Source: Mixta theicola
Lineage (GTDB): Bacteria; Pseudomonadota; Gammaproteobacteria; Enterobacterales; Enterobacteriaceae
Length of the DNA stretch: 32,000 nucleotides
NCBI RefSeq assembly: GCF_002895925.1
Contig: NZ_NWUO01000007.1
Coordinates: 137,252-169,251 of the forward strand
Direction of reading: 5' to 3'
In this document: positions 12,315-20,195 of the stretch, piece by piece
Position numbering within the stretch: the stretch's first letter is position 1
How the letters are laid out: every line of letters begins with the position of its first letter
The notes under the pieces: model-generated
The model's input: only the letters and a program-made list of their open reading frames with translations
Database searches by the model: none
What the model was told of the DNA's origin: nothing
Position numbers and translations under genes: made by a program

Positions 12315-12339
12315 CGTTTTTGTAGGTAGATAAAAGCTA

Positions 12340-12364
12340 ACGGCTCCGAAAGGGGCCGTTTTTT
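12340..12364 (+). terminator. rho-independent terminator of lpdA
   Basis: ACGGCTCC-GAAA-GGGGCCGT hairpin followed by TTTTT, 26 nt after the lpdA stop. Confidence 0.7.
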
Positions 12365-12469
12365 ATTAGGTAAAGCAAAAGACGGGATAATTTTTCTGTT
12401 GATGCTTTTATTTTGTGATAAAGCGACAGGTGCTGGTAGACGTCGGTTGTTATTATCCAAAAGTCTTCA

Positions 12470-12564
12470 AAATCAAAGAAATAGTGTTATTTAAAAAAGT
12501 GGAATTTACTGGTGGATTTTTGCTCCTTGTTTTTTGTTTTTAAAATCAGTGAGATAATTTTAGA
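12470..12564 (+). promoter_or_regulatory. CRISPR1 leader
   Basis: AT-rich 95 nt abutting the first repeat. It shares ordered blocks with the CRISPR2 leader: AAATCAA(A)GA, GTTAT, TTAAAAA, GGAA(A)TTT, GGTGGA and an identical ATAATTTTAGAG directly before repeat 1. Confidence 0.75.
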
Positions 12565-14672
12565 GTGTTCCCCGCGCCAGCGGGGATAAACCGACCATAA
12601 TCGCCGAGCGCAGCAGTTCTTTTATGTGTTCCCCGCGCCAGCGGGGATAAACCGCGTTTTATAACCGCCCAACAGAACAGCGCGATGTGTTCCCCGCGCC
12701 AGCGGGGATAAACCGCCGCTTCTAATACGGTAGACGCCACGCCCGTCGTGTTCCCCGCGCCAGCGGGGATAAACCTTCGCCCAGCTCGGCCGCAATGGGT
12801 AAAACGCGGTGTTCCCCGCGCCAGCGGGGATAAACCGGCTCATTTCACAGGTTAGGGTTCGGTGTGTTTGTGTTCCCCGCGCCAGCGGGGATAAACCGCA
12901 ACCGAGGCGACCGTGACAGCCACCATGATCGTGTTCCCCGCGCCAGCGGGGATAAACCGCTGCCGCGCGAGTTCTGTCATGTTGCCCCGAGGTGTTCCCC
13001 GCGCCAGCGGGGATAAACCGGCCGTCCGTGAGTCGATGGTGAATACCTACGAGTGTTCCCCGCGCCAGCGGGGATAAACCGGCTATCTGTATACCGTGGA
13101 TGATGAGTTTGCCGTGTTCCCCGCGCCAGCGGGGATAAACCGGTTAATAACAATGTCTGAAAAATTGATAGGTGGTGTTCCCCGCGCCAGCGGGGATAAA
13201 CCGCGTTCGACACCGACACTGACAACGGCGCGCTACTGGCCGTGTTCCCCGCGCCAGCGGGGATAAACCGCAGATGCGTTCTACAACAGGGCTCATCAGG
13301 AGGTGTTCCCCGCGCCAGCGGGGATAAACCGCCTGGCGTCGGGGAATGAAGCACCGATGGGAGGTGTTCCCCGCGCCAGCGGGGATAAACCGCAACGGGT
13401 GAGTAATTCTGCTCAATATAGTGGGTGTTCCCCGCGCCAGCGGGGATAAACCGCGACCAATTCTGTCAGAGACATCGAGAATTATGTGTTCCCCGCGCCA
13501 GCGGGGATAAACCGGAAATTCTGTCGTTCACCACCTCCCGAAACCCGTGTTCCCCGCGCCAGCGGGGATAAACCGCGTCCACCAGCGAGGTTTGGTGGCC
13601 GGAGAATGTGTTCCCCGCGCCAGCGGGGATAAACCGGTTCCATTTTCAACCTTGTTTAATTTATCCTTGTGTTCCCCGCGCCAGCGGGGATAAACCGCGC
13701 GCTGCTCGTGGGCGAACCACCAAAAAGAGTGTTCCCCGCGCCAGCGGGGATAAACCGAATACGACGAGCTATGCCCGGCTTCTTCTTGAGTGTTCCCCGC
13801 GCCAGCGGGGATAAACCGGTGCCCGACAGCGAAATTAACTGGGAGCAGTTGTGTTCCCCGCGCCAGCGGGGATAAACCGGTATATTGCGACCAGTCCATG
13901 TCAGTCATTACGTGTTCCCCGCGCCAGCGGGGATAAACCGCGGCCAGTAAATAAAAAAGAACCAAAACCGCTGTGTTCCCCGCGCCAGCGGGGATAAACC
14001 GATGAATTTGAACATATTTACCTCGGCGTGCCGGTGTTCCCCGCGCCAGCGGGGATAAACCGGCGGCATTTGATATGGCACGGTTAATAATTTCGTGTTC
14101 CCCGCGCCAGCGGGGATAAACCGTTTTCCAGAGCGTTCCTGCGCGCGGGCGATGAGTGTTCCCCGCGCCAGCGGGGATAAACCGCAGGAAATGATCGCCT
14201 GCCTTAAGGGTCAAATGTGTTCCCCGCGCCAGCGGGGATAAACCGGTTTTCAATACGTGTACGCCATTCTTTGAAAAGTGTTCCCCGCGCCAGCGGGGAT
14301 AAACCGGAGGCGCTGCTTATGTTTGATGAGCTGAGCAAGTGTTCCCCGCGCCAGCGGGGATAAACCGGAATCCGTTATCATCAAAATGCGCCTTTATTTG
14401 TGTTCCCCGCGCCAGCGGGGATAAACCGAGCTTTTAATGTCTAACACAGAATTTCCTGCTGTGTTCCCCGCGCCAGCGGGGATAAACCGACCCGAAAACG
14501 CCGAAAGGTAAGGCGTACACCGTGTTCCCCGCGCCAGCGGGGATAAACCGTGAACCTGACTTATCCGACAGCCTCCGGCAATGTGTTCCCCGCACCAGCG
14601 GGGATAAACCGCTACCGGCGAGAAAGGTCGCCCCGGACGTGGCGTGTTCCCTGCGCCAGCGGGGATAAACCG
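12565..14672 (+). CRISPR. CRISPR1, type I-E array, 35 repeats / 34 spacers
   Basis: 29-nt repeat GTGTTCCCCGCGCCAGCGGGGATAAACCG at 12565, 12626, ... 14644 with period 61. Spacers are 32 nt except 38 nt (13204-13241) and 31 nt (13698-13728). Repeat 4 ends in T (12776). The last two repeats carry one substitution each (14583: CGCACC; 14644: CCCTGCG). Plus orientation is inferred from the leader at the 5' side, degenerate repeats at the 3' side, and the I-E 5' handle ATAAACCG. Confidence 0.98.
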
Positions 14673-14872
14673 CCTGTCCCGCTCAATACCATACCATCAA
14701 CAGCAAATGCCGCTTGTGCCCACCGAACGCTTCTGTGAAGCCTAATGGCGCATCTGGCGTATGGTGCAGATCTTTATCTTACGGCACTGCTTTTGAGCTG
14801 GCTGGGTTAAATTTTTTATTCAATGCCGGGGCGACACCTGAGGAATTTCCTGCGGGCCAGACTGGTTTTTAA
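14673..14872 (+). pseudogene. decayed copy of the toxin-ORF linker fused directly to the last CRISPR1 repeat
   Basis: 14673-14738 reads PVPLNTIPSTANAACAHRTLL*, compare PVPLSTINSKAAGG in the 15085 ORF; the DNA is homologous to 15561-15600 and 16422-16460 with a 5-bp ATACC duplication. A second piece in another frame (14816-14872, LFNAGATPEEFPAGQTGF*) resembles IYNGNPEGFRQT of the same ORF. Confidence 0.5.
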
Positions 14873-14958
14873 TGCGCGCTCGCTGACAGTGACAGGCCCT
14901 GACGGGAAAGCGTGAAACAGATAAATATTGTCGAAAATAACGACAGGATTCACTATAG

Positions 14959-14998
14959 CTAATTCACTAATTCACTAATTCACTAATTCACTAATTAA
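14959..14998. repeat. tandem octamer (CTAATTCA) x4 perfect plus 1 imperfect
   Basis: CTAATTCA repeats at 14959, 14967, 14975 and 14983, then CTAATTAA at 14991, with a partial ATTCACTA at 14948. It lies about 90 nt upstream of the 15085 ATG in very AT-rich DNA. Confidence 0.9.
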
Positions 14999-15084
14999 CT
15001 GATATAAATGGTTTTTTATGGTTGATGTCTAAATAAAGTTGTGCAATCGTGCAGGCGACAGTTTCCATCATAAGGATATGATGT

Positions 15085-16008
15085 ATGAGCTTCAGCCTGC
15101 CCGGAACCGATCTTTATTATCTGCCGCGCGACGATTTGGCCCCGGAGAAATATGAGGAAATTGTCTCTCCTCATTCCGCCTGGTCACGAATCGACAGCCA
15201 ATATGTTTTTGATGACCGTCCGCTTTTGTGTTTTCAGCTTATCAATATGTATGAACGCGCCTTTAACGGCTATACAAACCAGCCGCCGCCGCACGGGCCA
15301 CGGGAGCGGGAAAAGCTAAAAAGTATGATTTACTGCGGCGAGGCGGTGATGCTCGGCGGATTTTCTGCCTTAAAAGGCCGGCTGTTTTATATCAACGACG
15401 ATGGCGAGCTGATTTGCCGCGACCCGCTGGTGTTTAAGTTTAACGGGGCGCAGGATATTATCCGTGAATATAAAAGATCGGTTGCCCGCCGGGACTACAG
15501 CAGCAGGGGCGGAAAGCCACGTCCCACCGTTTTACCTGCCCGGCAGGCCGGGATAAAGCAGCCCGTTCCGCTCAGTACTATCAACAGTAAAGCCGCCGGT
15601 GGAATTTATAACGGCAACCCTGAAGGATTCAGACAGACTGCAGAGCAGCTGGGAGGCGATGCGCCTGCCGGTTATGACCAGATGATATCTGACCAGGCCA
15701 AAGGGTTGCTTATTGCGGGCGCCTCAATAGCGGCTGGCCTGACACTGGGCAGAATGCCTGTCAGTAAAACCAGGGTAAAAGGAGCTGTGGCGAAAGCGGA
15801 GGCTGTGGCTGGTAATTCGCTGAAAAATATCGGGAATAGCACCGCCAAAAATTTGTTTAAAAATAGAGCGGAAACACAAGCTAGTATCGATCAGAAATTA
15901 GCTAACTACCTGTTGAATAAAGATAACCCCGTTGGAAGCAGCAAGGCGGAATGGTTCGATAGCGCTCTTGGTTTTAACACAACAAATTCAGGTGAGCTTA
16001 CAAAATAA
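15085..16008 (+). CDS. polymorphic-toxin-like protein with an unrecognised N-terminal region, Gly/Ala-rich hydrophobic segment and a DUF6883-like C-terminal domain cut by a TAA
   Basis: 307-codon ORF with the SD AAGGA 8 nt upstream of the ATG. I do not recognise residues 1-170. The linker PVPLSTINSKAAGGIYNGNPEGF recurs twice elsewhere in the island. There is a hydrophobic GLLIAGASIAAGLTLG segment. From residue 269, DQKLANYLLNKDNPVGSSKAEWFDSALGF matches my memory of the DUF6883 signature (KLxxYLLxxxHPxGxxKAxFFxxLGF). Confidence 0.6.
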   Translation: MSFSLPGTDLYYLPRDDLAPEKYEEIVSPHSAWSRIDSQYVFDDRPLLCFQLINMYERAFNGYTNQPPPHGPREREKLKSMIYCGEAVMLGGFSALKGRLFYINDDGELICRDPLVFKFNGAQDIIREYKRSVARRDYSSRGGKPRPTVLPARQAGIKQPVPLSTINSKAAGGIYNGNPEGFRQTAEQLGGDAPAGYDQMISDQAKGLLIAGASIAAGLTLGRMPVSKTRVKGAVAKAEAVAGNSLKNIGNSTAKNLFKNRAETQASIDQKLANYLLNKDNPVGSSKAEWFDSALGFNTTNSGELTK

Positions 16009-16184
16009 ATAATCTTTGATGCCACTAAAGCTATCAAAACAGCAGAAACGCAGTTTGGTACTAAATATGTCAAATGATGCCAATAACTGGTCTGAATGGT
16101 AGAACTATTAACATTAAATTTGGTTGGATTAGGAATAATGATGGATTTGTCAGGCTCGTAACCGCTATTCCGGCCCAAAAATGA
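16009..16184 (+). pseudogene. remainder of the DUF6883-like domain, separated by a nonsense codon and a frameshift
   Basis: Reading on past TAA 16006-16008 gives IIFDATKAIKTAETQFGTKYVK then TGA (16075-16077). The -1 frame (2 nt downstream-shifted) entered at 16074 gives MMPITGLNGRTINIKFGWIRNNDGFVRLVTAIPAQK* (stop 16182-16184). Together these give the second half of the recalled DUF6883 pattern (G.KYV...GPNGR...WI...LVTA.P). Confidence 0.6.
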
Positions 16185-16205
16185 AAATTTATCGGAATTT
16201 ACTTT

Positions 16206-16403
16206 ATGTTAAAAGAATATGATGTAGTAAAAGCAAAAAAAGAGCTGACTAAAAAAGTATTAAAAAATTGTACAGGAGCTATAGTTTTGATATATCAAGA
16301 ACCTACTTTAGGGTATGAAGTAGATTTCGTGGATAATCAAGGAGATACGTTAGAAGTGCTAACAGTTTACCCTGAAGATGATATTGAACCAGTAAAATTT
16401 TGA
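16206..16403 (+). CDS. DUF4926-like small protein (candidate immunity/antitoxin partner)
   Basis: Intact 65-aa ORF MLKEYDVVKAKKELTKKVLKNCTGAIVLIYQEPTLGYEVDFVDNQGDTLEVLTVYPEDDIEPV. The pattern (D.V.L......L..G..G.IV.......YEVEF.D..G.T..V.T......I.P) fits my recollection of DUF4926, which commonly follows DUF6883 genes. It starts 21 nt after the reconstructed DUF6883 stop and is very AT-rich. Confidence 0.55.
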   Translation: MLKEYDVVKAKKELTKKVLKNCTGAIVLIYQEPTLGYEVDFVDNQGDTLEVLTVYPEDDIEPVKF

Positions 16404-16409
16404 TTCAGC

Positions 16410-16530
16410 CAGGATAAGGAAGCTTGTCCCGCTCAGTACCATCAATAGCAAAACCGCCGGGAGGCTTCTGGCCGCCGGTAGAATTTATAACGGCAGCTCT
16501 GGATTGTTGGATCCTAAAATGCTGAAATAA
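16410..16530 (+). pseudogene. orphan (promoterless, start-less) copy of the toxin linker with a different short C-terminus
   Basis: 16420-16530 reads KLVPLSTINSKTAGRLLAAGRIYNGSSGLLDPKMLK*. The DNA is homologous to 15549-15620 with an insertion of about 18 nt. There is no ATG in frame after the upstream stop at 16393-16395. Confidence 0.6.
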
Positions 16531-16531
16531 A

Positions 16532-16771
16532 GATATAGATAATGATTTTGAAATAAAATTTTTTATTGATTCTAAGTATGAAGAAATCACGGTGGAAATT
16601 TGTTATGGGGAAATACTCTACCAATGAAACAAAGATAAAGGCCCTGATAATATTGAAATAGAATTTTTTTCAGACGTCAAAATCTTAGCTGAACAAAATG
16701 CCATGAAATTTATCCTGAGTAGGTTCTTACAGATTTTAGCGGAAACAATACAAGAACTGGAAATATCTTAG
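16532..16771 (+). pseudogene. degraded small ORF, possibly an orphan immunity gene
   Basis: The frame reads DIDNDFEIKFFIDSKYEEITVEICYGEILYQ*NKDKGPDNIEIEFFSDVKILAEQNAMKFILSRFLQILAETIQELEIS*. It has an in-frame TGA at 16625-16627 and no clear start. Its AT-rich acidic composition and its position after an orphan toxin tip are typical of immunity genes. The family is not recognised. Confidence 0.35.
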
Positions 16772-16991
16772 CCAATACGAATCCCTGCCAACTGGCCGGG
16801 ATGTTAATGTATAACCAGCCTGCCTGAACTCAAAGTATGACGAATAATAAACAAGGAATGTTAGATGCTGCAGGGCGTAAGAAATACATTCTGGCAGACC
16901 ATGAGGAACACCCGAACCTATAAAGGGTGGCCAGGCCGAGAAAAATGCGGCAGCGGAAGGCTTCATTCGTGATGTTTTGCACAATCCTGAT

Positions 16992-17080
16992 GTGTTCCCT
17001 GCGTCAGGGAGGATCAACCGAACGTCAGCTGTTGAATGTTGATAGGGCGGTGTGTTCTCCGCCCAGGTGACGATAAACTT
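16992..17080 (+). CRISPR. two heavily decayed CRISPR repeats with a 31-nt spacer (relic trailer)
   Basis: 16992-17020 GTGTTCCCTGCGTCAGGGAGGATCAACCG has 5 of 29 mismatches to the repeat. 17052-17080 GTGTTCTCCGCCCAGGTGACGATAAACTT has 9 of 29 ungapped mismatches. The orientation is the same as CRISPR1. Confidence 0.8.
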
Positions 17081-17145
17081 TTATATCAAAATGAGAGTTT
17101 ATCGCAGTGGATTCAACTGGAATAAAATAATAGCCTGCCATTATA

Positions 17146-17174
17146 TTTATTGCTGCGCCTTCGGGGATTAATTA
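17146..17174 (+). repeat. possible third decayed repeat overlapping the cas3 stop codon
   Basis: TTTATTGCTGCGCCTTCGGGGATTAATTA matches 17 of 29 positions overall, but the core GCGCC..CGGGGAT matches 12 of 14. Spacing from the previous relic is 94 nt, not 61. Confidence 0.35.
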
Positions 17175-19892
17175 TTTATTCACTACATTACTACCACATA
17201 GTCCGTAGCGCTGGCTGTAATATGACGATTCCCCTGTTGATGACACCAAAATGACGTATGCTGCGGGACGATGCTGCTTTTTGCGAAACTGCTCCAGCGT
17301 TTCATCGTCAGGGCAAGCAAAATTTCCTGATTGTTTCTTCCACCACGACAGGCGTACAGACAGGCGACTTTTTTCCCAAACAAAATCACCTTCGCTAACT
17401 AGGGGGTGTAACACTCTATTTTCATCCTGCCAGGCAAGATATAGATCAACGCTTTCCTCGCCCAGGCGTGTTGAAAACTCTCGCTCTTTATCCCATAGAA
17501 AATCACTGGCTTCTCTGTCGTAGCCTTTATCTCGTCGCAATAAGTTTTGAGCCGCAACAGCGCGTTGGCTTAATATTTTACCGAACGCTATATCAGAAAT
17601 AGTTAATAAGTCGGAAGGCGCTGTTATTTCTTGTCCATAAACGCCATCGATCAACATTCGGGCGCTTTCGGGCATGCGTATTTCCCCAGCTTGTTTAAGC
17701 AGCGCCTGCGTACGCCATAAACAGGCATGATCGGGATAAACGGCTCCGGTGCCGCGCAGTTCCTGTCCCAGCCAGTCCCGTTCCGCCTGCGGCTGCCATT
17801 CAGGCGCGAGGATATGCAGCACTGGCGGGTGCCGCTCATCAGGCAAAGTGGTTTTACATTTTCCCTGTACATTGCGGATATGACGCTGCAAACGGCCTGC
17901 TCGTTGAATAAGTAAATCGATGGGCGCTAAATCAGAGATCATCCAGTCAAAATCGAGATCCAGACTCTGCTCAACAACCTGCGTTGCAATTAGCACTTTC
18001 CCGCGACGTTCCGAAACCGGCGCATCCTTGCCGAACCAGCTTAACGTTTTTTCTTCAATCGCCATTCGATCCGCAAAGGCAAAACGGCTATGGAACAACA
18101 ATAGGTCCTGCTCGGGTATTTTCGCTTCATTTAGGAGCTGCCGAAAAACATTCAGCGCATCGTCAACGGTATTTCGAATCCAGCAAACGCATCCGCCGAA
18201 TTCCACTACCTGATAAATAATATCCAGCGCATCTTTGCACGTATGGATCCAGTTCACAGCTACCGTACGCTTTACTTCCGAACGCGTTGTTAGCGGTTGT
18301 TCTGAAAGGCCAGCAGAAGAAAGATGACTTAACCATGGGTAACTGGCTTCTTCACTAATATTTGTGGTGGGGTATCCGGCTCCTTCATTAAATGCGCAGA
18401 TTAATTTTTCTCGCAGTGCGGCGGGTAATGTCGCGCTTAAAATGATGGCGCTGCCGCCCTGGGCGGCATGAAAGCGGAGCAGCCCCTCCAGCAGCTTCAC
18501 CATATAACCATCGTAGGCATGCACCTCATCCAGCAACAAAATTTTGTCGAGCATTCCCAGCAGACGCAAGGATTGATGGCGAAATGGCATCACCGCCATC
18601 AGTAGCTGATCCAGTGTGCCAACGCCAACTTCCGCCAGTAAGGCTTTTTTACGCGAATCGGCAAACCAGGCATGGCATTCCGCCTGCGCACTGCTTTCAT
18701 TGCGCGCATAATCTTCAGCCTGATTTTTTTCACCGGGTTGCCAGATGGACTGCTGAAAAGAGGCGGCCATTTCGCGCCCGCCATGCGCCAGTATCAGCGA
18801 GGGTCTGGCATCATCAACAAACAGCGCGCGATAAGCTTTTGCCAGTCGCGAGTACATCGCGTTAGCGGTCGCCATCGTCGGCAGACCGACATATAACCCT
18901 TTCCCTTTACCGGCAGATAATAAACGATGGGTCAGAATCATCGCTGCCTCAGTTTTTCCAGCACCTGTGACATCTTCCATAATAATCAGCTGTGGGCCAG
19001 ACGCTGAAATATCCAGCGTAGCCGCTCGTTGCTGGAGCGGCGTTAGCGTTTTGATAAACGGGAACAGTGCCTGATGGCTGGTATAATGACTATATGCTGA
19101 TAAAGGCGGGATATTTTCAATCGCTCGCCGGGCTTTTTCGCAGGCGAGCGGCCAATAATCTTGCAGGGTAACCGGAGCGGCAATAAGCGGAAACTGAGTT
19201 TCGTCAGATCCTATCCAGTCCGCCAACGTCATTATGCCGGCAAAAAACCAGCTTTGCTGCCTTAAAATTTTTTTTGCTGTTTTTTTCTGCCATTCCTGCG
19301 GCAGTGTGAAAGGAAACAGCTGGCTCAACGTCTCAAGATAATTTTTGGCGGCAACGATATCGTCGCCGTCGAACGCCAGCGGGCTGCTATTTTTTAACGT
19401 ATCTGGAGGAATGCCATGATGTCCGGTGCTAATGGATAACCAGATAGTTAACGCGCTTTCAAATTTTTCGCGATCTTCTCGGGCAACATTAGAAATTATT
19501 TGATTGCTATCACTACACCAGTCTTTAAATAATCTATCCCATAAATAAAAGCCCAGCGAATCATGGCGTTCAGGCGCGAAAATATGGCTTACAGGCGGAG
19601 CTAATGGCGAATCAGGAAACACAGCATATTTTTGAAATCCCCTGGCGAACTTACCTATATCATGGCAGGCGAAGAGCCAGGCAATCCAGTTAGCGGTATC
19701 TTTCTCAGCAATGCCACATTTATGAAGCATGTTATTAATATTAAAGATATTATGTTTAACTAAATAATATCCGCATGCGGCGACATCAAGGCAGTGATAG
19801 GGCAGCAGATGATAAGGATCATTTTTATTGTTGCTGGATTTGTTAGTTTTTCCCCAGTAGAGAAGAAAGTCAGGAGTTGTTAACACCGTCAT
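17172..19892 (-). CDS. cas3: Cas3 HD nuclease / SF2 helicase, type I-E
   Basis: 906-aa ORF. N-terminal HD domain (HCLDVAA..., CHDIGKF, HHG), Walker A DVTGAGKTEAA, DEAH-like LLDEVHAYD, and helicase motif VI QRAGRLQRH. Its size is similar to E. coli Cas3. Confidence 0.95.
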   Translation of the reverse strand: MTVLTTPDFLLYWGKTNKSSNNKNDPYHLLPYHCLDVAACGYYLVKHNIFNINNMLHKCGIAEKDTANWIAWLFACHDIGKFARGFQKYAVFPDSPLAPPVSHIFAPERHDSLGFYLWDRLFKDWCSDSNQIISNVAREDREKFESALTIWLSISTGHHGIPPDTLKNSSPLAFDGDDIVAAKNYLETLSQLFPFTLPQEWQKKTAKKILRQQSWFFAGIMTLADWIGSDETQFPLIAAPVTLQDYWPLACEKARRAIENIPPLSAYSHYTSHQALFPFIKTLTPLQQRAATLDISASGPQLIIMEDVTGAGKTEAAMILTHRLLSAGKGKGLYVGLPTMATANAMYSRLAKAYRALFVDDARPSLILAHGGREMAASFQQSIWQPGEKNQAEDYARNESSAQAECHAWFADSRKKALLAEVGVGTLDQLLMAVMPFRHQSLRLLGMLDKILLLDEVHAYDGYMVKLLEGLLRFHAAQGGSAIILSATLPAALREKLICAFNEGAGYPTTNISEEASYPWLSHLSSAGLSEQPLTTRSEVKRTVAVNWIHTCKDALDIIYQVVEFGGCVCWIRNTVDDALNVFRQLLNEAKIPEQDLLLFHSRFAFADRMAIEEKTLSWFGKDAPVSERRGKVLIATQVVEQSLDLDFDWMISDLAPIDLLIQRAGRLQRHIRNVQGKCKTTLPDERHPPVLHILAPEWQPQAERDWLGQELRGTGAVYPDHACLWRTQALLKQAGEIRMPESARMLIDGVYGQEITAPSDLLTISDIAFGKILSQRAVAAQNLLRRDKGYDREASDFLWDKEREFSTRLGEESVDLYLAWQDENRVLHPLVSEGDFVWEKSRLSVRLSWWKKQSGNFACPDDETLEQFRKKQHRPAAYVILVSSTGESSYYSQRYGLCGSNVVNK

Positions 19893-20004
19893 GTTTTTAT
19901 CCTACACCTTATACGGAATAATGCTGACGATTTTAATATGCTACCAGAATGAACTGAACACAATTTTATACAACGCTTATATGAATGTAATTAAGATTAA
20001 AGTC

Positions 20005-20084
20005 TATTTTCCCCCGCTGACGGGGAAGCGCTCTGTTAAAGATTGTATAACTGGTGTTTTATCCCTGTAAGCATCAAGGAAGTT
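20005..20084 (-). other. two inverted CRISPR-repeat-like units flanking a 24-nt spacer-like segment (candidate psi-crRNA / relic mini-array) upstream of cas3
   Basis: Read on the minus strand. Unit B (20084->20055) is AACTTCCTTGATGCTTACAGGGATAAAACA, containing GGGATAAA, an exact 8-mer of the repeat 3' end. Then comes CCAGTTATACAATCTTTAACAGAG (20054->20031). Unit A (20030->20005) is CGCTTCCCCGTCAGCGGGGGAAAATA, containing TTCCCCG and CAGCGGGG, exact 7- and 8-mers of the repeat, with the stem-loop CCCCG-TCAG-CGGGG. Confidence 0.5.
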
Positions 20085-20195
20085 TCTTTCGTGCTAACCC
20101 ATGAGGAAATGCTGTTGTTGGCATTCCTAGTCTCTGTAATGAAGCGCTAACGTCCGGCTGGCCCCTCTTTGGGCCAGTCTTACAGGAGTAACAAG

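Follow-up and report, generated by a model that had tools for sequence, protein, structure and literature searches.

A probable eroded cluster of orphan effector-immunity modules in the trailer of a type I-E CRISPR array of Mixta theicola

In Mixta theicola, a 2.3 kb island separates a CRISPR array (CRISPR1) from cas3 in a stretch of 32,000 nucleotides (nt; contig NZ_NWUO01000007.1, positions 137,252 to 169,251), referred to here as the window and numbered from its first letter. With a probability of about 75%, this island is an eroded cluster of orphan type VI secretion system (T6SS) effector-immunity modules within the CRISPR1 trailer, between the 35-repeat array and two decayed repeats. Taken locally, the island represents a module of a known kind, though decayed and found in an unusual setting. 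This reading is carried by the identity of the island's parts and their decay, by the repeats that flank them and by the recurrence of such cassettes between CRISPR repeats in other genomes.

CRISPR repeats on both sides of the island

When both strands of the entire window were scanned with the 29-nt repeat GTGTTCCCCGCGCCAGCGGGGATAAACCG, allowing up to 10 mismatches, the matches comprised the 35 repeats of CRISPR1, the 25 repeats of CRISPR2 and just two matches outside the arrays, at 16992 and 17052. These two relics lie on the array's strand and in register, where about 0.05 matches per window are expected by chance at nine or fewer mismatches. The scan confirms what a model had earlier reported for this DNA from the sequence alone (hereafter the initial annotation), namely that the regular array stops at 14672 and that mutated repeats of the same orientation follow at 16992 and 17052. 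A third relic proposed at 17146-17174, with 12 of 29 mismatches, is not supported: about 7.8 such matches are expected per window, its distance to the previous relic is 94 nt and not 61, and it overlaps the cas3 stop codon. The smooth series of repeat decay that had been drawn away from the leader (0, 1, 1, 5, 9 and 12 mismatches) accordingly lacks support as well, while the last two CRISPR1 repeats do carry one mismatch each. The variant C9T is common to the last CRISPR1 repeat, to the relic at 16992 and to the repeat directly 3' of the orthologous cassette in Mixta calida, which is described below.

The effector pseudogene and its delivery domain

The largest element of the island is the 307-codon open reading frame (ORF) that had been noted for its good Shine-Dalgarno site, and which is recovered here at 15085-16008 with AAGGA upstream. 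Its 307-aa product is identical to GLR08690.1/PNS11597.1 of M. theicola and has 471 homologs with a common N-terminal domain and linker; among the matches listed, these are mostly 350-390 aa long and come from Mixta, Pantoea, Erwinia, Enterobacter, Klebsiella, Yersinia and Salmonella. The precomputed N-terminal domain of the homologs is PF26362, named DUF8093, and is followed by the linker INSKAAGRLLAAGGIYNGNPEGFRQTAEQLGG... The C-termini carried by this same N-terminus include, among the homologs listed, HNH, colicin D, Ntox46, PF15524, PF15657, PF13930 and DUF6883. The linker and DUF6883 portion also matches Hcp-DUF6883 fusions. A linker of the form INSKAAG(RLLAAG)GIYNGNPEGFRQTAEQLGGDA is shared with a Pantoea agglomerans HNH protein whose N-terminus resembles that of the PIX effector Pse3; in the window ORF the linker has a 6-codon deletion and the canonical GRLLAAG motif is lost.

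According to the PIX paper of Carobbi et al., T6SS secretion in P. agglomerans requires residues 1-140 of Pse3 (the PIX domain), which also suffice for it and which bind VgrG, residues 141-200 are conserved but dispensable, and the C-terminal toxins of PIX effectors are polymorphic (10.1101/2023.07.16.549128). The same source describes PIX genes as having an immunity gene within 25 bp, as never standing beside T6SS genes and as restricted to Enterobacterales, with a T6SS gene cluster in 92.4% of PIX-encoding genomes (10.1101/2023.07.16.549128). A profile comparison (hhalign) of 12 DUF8093 N-termini with six PIX-proper N-termini, the latter anchored by residues 1-14 of Pse3 (MLHHYQAKSVDDIY) taken from the paper's model file, gave a probability of 91.8% and an E value of 7.5e-7 over 110 columns. 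The family to which the window gene belongs thus combines N-terminal homology to PIX, a conserved linker, polymorphic tips, a nearby immunity gene and an orphan position. Besides the island, the genes of the window are pdhR-aceEF-lpdA, CRISPR-Cas and acnB, and the effector gene is an orphan from T6SS genes. Delivery, which the initial annotation had left unexplained, has a candidate explanation in this homology, as such effectors are characteristically encoded away from secretion genes; intact modules of the family would be delivered by the T6SS.

The DUF6883 toxin and the DUF4926 immunity gene

In the window the effector gene is a pseudogene, interrupted by a TAA at 16006-16008 and by a frameshift near 16074, whereas intact relatives encode 349-376 aa. 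Pfam finds DUF6883 only in part in the ORF (E 2.8e-5) and at full length once stop and frameshift are read across (E 4e-16, profile positions 9-109 of 110), in agreement with the broken DUF6883-like domain described initially. The premature stop is probably real, since the same 307-aa product stands under two M. theicola accessions on two contigs. The window therefore holds no intact reading frame for an active toxin.

DUF6883 is a widespread polymorphic-toxin tip that, in Proteobacteria and Firmicutes, is found also in short proteins labelled filamentous hemagglutinin; a few of these carry a pre-toxin domain, PT-TG or PT-HINT, as well. A structure model of the domain, built from a 52-sequence alignment on a relative (P0222) and not on the broken copy of the window, reached a pLDDT of 94.3. 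Its sole significant match in the PDB was 6CP9, CdiA-CT Kp342 (E 1e-4, TM-score 0.65, probability 1.00, 114 columns), with RelE and HigB2 as weak structural matches; a sequence-level search of DUF6883 against the PDB found no match. CdiA-CT Kp342 is a tRNase of the BECR fold that acts on tRNA-Ile and needs EF-Tu, EF-Ts and GTP (PMC9086364). The model thus suggests that DUF6883 has a BECR RNase fold, most similar to that of a tRNase, and from this fold the toxin may be expected to act as an RNase.

The DUF4926-like ORF that had been described behind the toxin is intact and well supported by Pfam (Table 1). It starts 21 nt after the reconstructed toxin stop; in intact relatives it overlaps the toxin stop or begins about 10 nt past it. 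DUF4926 follows the toxin in 44 of 44 DUF6883 loci, which were selected for that pairing, and in other loci with called genes. The DUF4926 protein is predicted to neutralise the DUF6883 toxin. As the toxin is dead and the immunity gene intact, the likely remaining function of the island is protection against relatives that still fire a DUF6883 toxin.

Orphan modules and island edges

Behind the immunity gene stands a second, start-less copy of the linker (orphan 2), for which a new short C-terminus had been claimed; this is correct, and the C-terminus consists of the last ten codons of a different toxin, here called toxin X. Orphan 2 keeps the canonical GRLLAAG motif that the main ORF has lost, and its source is therefore another member of the family. 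The tail of orphan 2, SGLLDPKMLK, is matched by the C-termini of one effector-family protein (P0055) and of a VENN-CT toxin of Pantoea dispersa. Similarly, 16498-16805 is 76% identical in nucleotides, over 312 nt, to P. dispersa plasmid pESL4.1, where the match takes in the last part of a VENN pre-toxin orphan together with the gene behind it, of 79 aa. The small ORF that the initial annotation had found to contain an in-frame TGA (16625-16627) can thus be named as the toxin-X immunity pseudogene, and part of the further coding debris as a toxin-X fragment at 16872-16985, which matches the P. dispersa toxin and P0055 at 47-50% over 38 aa (tblastx, tblastn).

A third linker fragment (fragment 0), absent from the initial annotation, is fused directly to the last CRISPR1 repeat, with nothing recognisable after it. 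The island therefore contains linker copies at 14673, 15561 and 16422, each with a different end, and each recognisable tip is followed by its own immunity gene: DUF4926 after DUF6883, and the toxin-X immunity homolog, now a pseudogene, after the toxin-X tail. This is the orphan toxin-immunity architecture, formed by C-terminal displacement, that had been proposed. Both edges of the island cut through toxin-gene fragments, and the left junction coincides with a microhomology, GGGATAAA, common to the 3' end of the repeat and the linker-coding region of the main ORF.

Recurrence in other genomes

The proposal that the island was inserted into the CRISPR1 trailer is backed by two other species of Mixta. 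In Mixta tenebrionis, whose Cas3 is 75% identical, two perfect repeats abut cas3 and are followed by a 1.2 kb insert and then by a 28-repeat array. The insert (12868-14108 of the fetched locus) contains higB (Pfam HigB_toxin, E 7e-23) and a helix-turn-helix antitoxin gene, with a hydrophobic ORF of 76 aa on the other strand. The higBA pair is co-oriented with the array and stands before the last two repeats, which is the position of the island in the window. In M. calida, an intact 370-aa effector gene and a 66-aa DUF4926 gene lie in an orphan I-E mini-array between secA and mutT. A leader-like region and a pair of I-E repeats stand before these genes, and three decaying repeats begin 17 nt past the stop. 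The fetched 21 kb contain no cas gene, which means none within about 10 kb of the mini-array, and the cassette is nonetheless retained. Over 240 nt the M. calida leader shares 67% identity with leader 1 of the window, whereas its identity with leader 2 or with that of M. tenebrionis is 44-52%. Relic 1 and the first ~13 nt of the next spacer can be aligned, at 84% over 43 nt, with the sequence immediately 3' of the cassette in M. calida, the resemblance extending from the C9T repeat into the start of the spacer after it. The cassettes of M. theicola and M. calida read as one old event, as judged from these shared flanks. Other PIX-type cassettes of M. calida lie outside arrays. The M. calida mini-array also contains a 63-aa ORF without a family match, followed by a terminator-like hairpin, in the interval from its second repeat to the effector gene (L042 9567-9758).

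Beyond Mixta, Klebsiella pneumoniae of type I-E* carries an intact 371-aa DUF8093-DUF6883 gene and the gene for a 227-aa DUF4926 protein after the array downstream of cas2, an array that ends in degenerate repeats. At 22 nt past the stop of the immunity gene, and ahead of a glyoxalase gene, there is a repeat-like unit with 8 of 28 mismatches, against 0.014 such units expected by chance. Seven metagenomic contigs have the I-E* array directly 5' of a 98-99% identical toxin gene, and the downstream repeat-like unit is present in all five that reach far enough. An earlier survey of the K. pneumoniae I-E* locus makes no mention of a toxin-immunity pair (PMC4522967), and one K. pneumoniae member of the effector protein cluster is annotated as 'Cas3 family helicase'. 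In the K. pneumoniae immunity protein (L043 11127-11810), DUF4926 occupies residues 5-62 only; the additional ~165 residues match no Pfam family but are conserved, at 64-75% protein identity, in related non-array cassettes. Finally, two metagenomic contigs of type I-F show the order clpA-infA-aat, three I-F repeats, a 349-aa effector gene, DUF4926, a relic I-F repeat with a perfect 19-nt core, and cydCD. The effector in this case joins a Pse3-like (PIX-proper) N-terminus to a DUF6883 tip.

Cassettes of DUF6883 and DUF4926 between repeats of the same orientation are therefore found in M. calida, in the I-E* locus of K. pneumoniae, in the I-F mini-array and in the window. The 44 loci in which DUF6883 is followed by DUF4926 represent about 23 flanking contexts, three of them in arrays; with the window and two further non-array loci added, about 4 of 26 contexts are in arrays. 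All five array-embedded inserts (four of them independent, counting higBA) are co-oriented with array transcription and are separated from the end of the trailer by one to three repeats. Among the 37 loci that have a different toxin tip, none is array-embedded. When the divergence of cassettes is compared with that of the Cas proteins, Mixta I-E and Klebsiella I-E* are 27-37% identical in the Cas proteins and 39-46% in the toxins, and cassettes related to that of Klebsiella (79-86% protein identity) are found outside arrays as well.

Three further loci were recorded among the relatives. In Phytobacter massiliensis (L009 12720-19726), an 11-repeat array abuts cas3 and is separated by cysH-cysI-cysJ-queD (5.2 kb) from a 19-repeat array of the same orientation. 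In Entomohabitans teleogrylli (L010 6208-8921), cas3 is truncated by a 19-repeat array to residues 275-904; between this array and a single weak repeat-like match are a 198-aa protein with an HExxH motif, a DUF7480 lipoprotein and a possible transposase-like 56-aa ORF without a Pfam match, genes which may represent another effector-immunity pair beside an array. In Lamprocystis purpurea (L033 19455-20085), a 630-bp gap interrupts the I-E array.

Organisation of the locus

The order of genes in the window is pdhR-aceE-aceF-lpdA, leader and CRISPR1, island, cas3 (minus strand), cse1 to cas1 (plus strand), CRISPR2 and acnB; the features in and around the island are listed in Table 1. The CRISPR1 spacers are 32 nt long except for one of 38 nt (13175-13270) and one of 31 nt (13669-13757), which give repeat spacings of 67 and 60 nt. 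Several relatives have a repeat-like match with 4-6 mismatches, antisense to the arrays, in the divergent cas3-cse1 intergenic region (M. tenebrionis, L001 9184-9995; L002-L004 near 9890), to which the window has no counterpart in 19893-20168 at 10 or fewer mismatches.

Table 1. Features of the CRISPR1 leader, array, island and cas3 in the window
Feature	Position	Strand	Remarks
CRISPR1 leader	12315..12564	+	ends ...ATAATTTTAGA at the first repeat; AT-rich, GC 0.33
CRISPR1, type I-E, 35 repeats	12565..14672	+	last repeat 14644-14672 carries the C9T variant
Linker fragment 0	14673..14714	+	what is left, without a start, of a PIX-type effector gene; abuts the last repeat
Filler	14715..15061	+	includes 8-bp tandem repeat CTAATTCA x5.2 at 14959-15000
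Conserved cassette 5' edge	15062..15084	+	ribosome-binding site GTTTCCATCATAAGGATATGATGT before ATG
Effector pseudogene	15085..16184	+	DUF8093/PIX-like domain 15085-15528, linker ~15529-15850, DUF6883 ~15868-16184
DUF4926 immunity gene	16206..16403	+	intact, 65 codons; Pfam E 1.6e-10
Orphan 2	16405..16530	+	linker fragment and last ~10 codons of toxin X
Toxin-X immunity pseudogene	16535..16771	+	start codon lost, in-frame TGA 16625-16627
Second toxin-X domain, decayed internal fragment	16872..16991	+	two in-frame stops, cut off at the relic repeat
Relic repeat 1	16992..17020	+	5/29 mismatches, carries C9T
Relic repeat 2	17052..17080	+	9/29 mismatches, starts 60 nt after relic 1
cas3	17172..19892	-	NCBIfam Cas3; 3' end toward the array trailer

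The island had been described as AT-rich. Its overall GC is 0.437 against 0.528 for the window, and the AT-rich part, at a GC of 0.30-0.36, is 16206-16770. Neither the filler at 14715-15061 nor the tail at 17021-17171 has a detectable homolog in the fetched loci, plasmids or E. coli, and NCBIfam gave no match for the ORFs of the island. The tandem repeat in the filler (97% matches, ~85 nt 5' of the effector start) is absent upstream of the other cassettes compared. The sole upstream stretch in common with cassettes at other genomic sites is 15062-15084, and conservation between cassettes is limited to about 25 nt before the start codon. Spacer-guided capture of the island was considered and rejected: the 58 CRISPR1 and CRISPR2 spacers share with the island and with all fetched cassettes only chance 14-18-mers.

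Origin of the island and alternative explanations

The observations can be combined into the following scheme. An intact effector of this family would load onto VgrG through its PIX-type N-terminal domain, with a conserved linker leading to a C-terminal DUF6883 RNase, and the DUF4926 protein would neutralise the toxin. The trailer may have received a cassette of this kind before the split between M. theicola and M. calida; later modules may then have displaced older ones by recombination in the common linker, and deletions between repeats and toxin-gene interiors could have trimmed both edges, the left one at the GGGATAAA microhomology. Insertion into a trailer would be cheap, cutting off only the oldest spacers, and the preference for trailers is most simply explained by this low cost. 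The array would give co-directional transcription to a cassette that has no conserved promoter, with read-through from the leader as a hypothetical addition, and toxin-antidote modules would withstand the repeat-mediated deletions that purge neutral inserts.

Several points weigh against this scheme. The homology to PIX is distant: BLASTP aligns from residue ~104 on and not over the first ~100 residues, and a search with the PIX-proper N-terminus gave 11 short proteins (80-238 aa), none with a precomputed Pfam domain, so the N-terminal domain may be either remotely related to PIX or a sister delivery domain that shares the linker. The content of the window gives no view of T6SS or VgrG genes. 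Promoter-like sites in the island, as well as the promoter and terminator scans as a whole, are at chance level. The similarity at the left junction ranks only in the top 0.7% of windows scored genome-wide, which leaves a repeat-like sequence within the effector gene unsupported as a general cause of capture; it is kept here as microhomology at a single junction. The relic in K. pneumoniae has 8 of 28 mismatches and resembles an intrinsic terminator as well as a repeat. About 22 of 26 contexts of such cassettes are outside arrays. No island-free allele was found among the cas3 loci compared, none of which is from M. theicola, and the direction of events is for this reason only inferred.

The relics beside cas3 could instead belong to a small independent array with its own leader, in which case the island would lie between two arrays and would never have been inserted. 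Enterobacterial I-E loci often have several arrays, and P. massiliensis has just such an array abutting cas3, with a second one 5.2 kb away beyond cysHIJ-queD. However, the 220 nt 5' of relic 1 are toxin-gene debris and not leader-like, and TTTAGA, which directly precedes the first repeat in all four leaders compared, is absent before 16992. In M. calida a single leader serves repeats on both sides of the cassette, and in M. tenebrionis the two perfect cas3-proximal repeats are directly preceded by the higBA insert. Two separate arrays are thus very improbable. It is possible, if rather doubtful, that cassettes fall by accident into trailers that are variable and prone to recombination, the recurrence then being due to integration hot spots and sampling. 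The heavy decay of the island would fit this, as would the ordinary intergenic sites of most family cassettes and the M. calida cassette kept without a cas gene near its mini-array; PIX genes, too, adjoin mobility elements and are probably horizontally transferred, as reported (10.1101/2023.07.16.549128). Yet arrays make up, by our estimate, well under 1% of a genome and hold about 4 of 26 contexts, at least three of them independent (I-E, I-E* and I-F). A purely accidental origin also sits poorly with the finding that every array cassette is repeat-flanked on both sides, trailer-near and co-oriented, and with the confinement to one toxin tip, the other tips giving 0 of 37.

Two further explanations give the cassette a role in the CRISPR-Cas system itself. 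The initial annotation had speculated that the toxin-immunity pair acts as an addiction module, such that cells deleting the locus lose immunity and die. Toxin-antitoxin genes in or beside I-E and I-F arrays of Pectobacterium (PMC6963963; PMC3513311), higBA at the equivalent site of M. tenebrionis, and the intact K. pneumoniae pairs that flank arrays and adjoin a complete cas operon would all suit such a role. In the window it finds no support because the toxin gene is dead, which makes self-addiction impossible; moreover, the M. calida cassette persists with no cas gene within about 10 kb and so protects itself and not CRISPR-Cas, and a cassette at the far end of an array is not mechanically coupled in its loss to the loss of cas genes. 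Addiction is accordingly quite improbable as an account of this island. It is also unlikely that array trailers are a recurrent home for this one cassette type because it behaves as a giant spacer, bounded by repeats, co-oriented and lacking a conserved promoter, transcribed from the leader within the precursor CRISPR RNA and released by Cas6 at the flanking repeats, or captured or retained by way of the repeats. If true, this would couple the expression of toxin and immunity to that of CRISPR. An eroded effector-immunity cluster inserted into the trailer remains the preferred reading, and if it is more than a tolerated insertion, phage defence and interbacterial killing would be joined in one transcription unit and array trailers would be a place to seek new toxin-antidote cargo. 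Embedded cassettes would also explain 'split' or 'extra' array annotations, and it can be their cargo that lets orphan mini-arrays persist.

Comparison with known systems

Neither orphan effectors of the PIX type nor toxin-antitoxin genes in the vicinity of CRISPR loci are new in themselves. No secreted effector-immunity cassette between CRISPR repeats was reported in the literature searched. What appears to be new, as far as the loci compared indicate, is the presence of such cargo in at least three independent lineages with three repeat types, always near the trailer and co-oriented.

The nearest known systems for the effector are Pse3/Psi3 and Pse4/Psi4 of P. agglomerans. In the part of the PIX paper used here, these share with the window module a length of about 350-380 aa, an N-terminal delivery domain of ~140 aa, a conserved 141-200 region (INSKAAGRLLAAGGIYNGNPEGFR), a polymorphic C-terminal toxin, an immunity gene immediately after it and a location away from T6SS genes. 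They differ in that the window domain is of the DUF8093 subtype, related to Pse3 at the profile level only and tipped with DUF6883, which may or may not be among the unassigned C-terminal types of the PIX paper, and in that the window gene is a pseudogene within a CRISPR array, a setting that does not appear in that part of the source (10.1101/2023.07.16.549128).

The orphan cdiA-CT/cdiI and rhs-CT/rhsI arrays are similar in their start-less pre-toxin fragments, different tips and own immunity genes, and one module of the window has a direct homolog in P. dispersa, an orphan pair of the VENN/CdiA type. However, the common segment in the window is the PIX-effector linker and not VENN or PxxxxDPxGL, and the cluster is tiny, mostly decayed and without a large upstream cdiA or rhs gene. 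CdiA-CT Kp342/CdiI (6CP9) is the best structural match of the DUF6883 model, with the same order of helices followed by four strands, whereas sequence identity is 18%. CreTA, which Li et al. are said to have described in Science in 2021, is reportedly an RNA toxin-antitoxin that safeguards CRISPR-Cas. It resembles the island as a toxin-antidote element embedded in a CRISPR-Cas locus, but is RNA-based and has an antitoxin that needs Cascade, while the cassette of the window shows no Cas dependence as far as examined.

The setting itself has its nearest precedents in Pectobacterium. In P. atrosepticum, eca3686-7 is a toxin-antidote pair between runs of the same repeat, lying between CRISPR2 and CRISPR3, and RelE/HigB modules occur near Pectobacterium I-E arrays (PMC6963963; PMC3513311), to which higBA of M. 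tenebrionis is a direct parallel. These modules are intracellular and of type II, whereas the cargo in the window is a secreted interbacterial effector with its immunity gene, of a kind that recurs in I-E, I-E* and I-F arrays.

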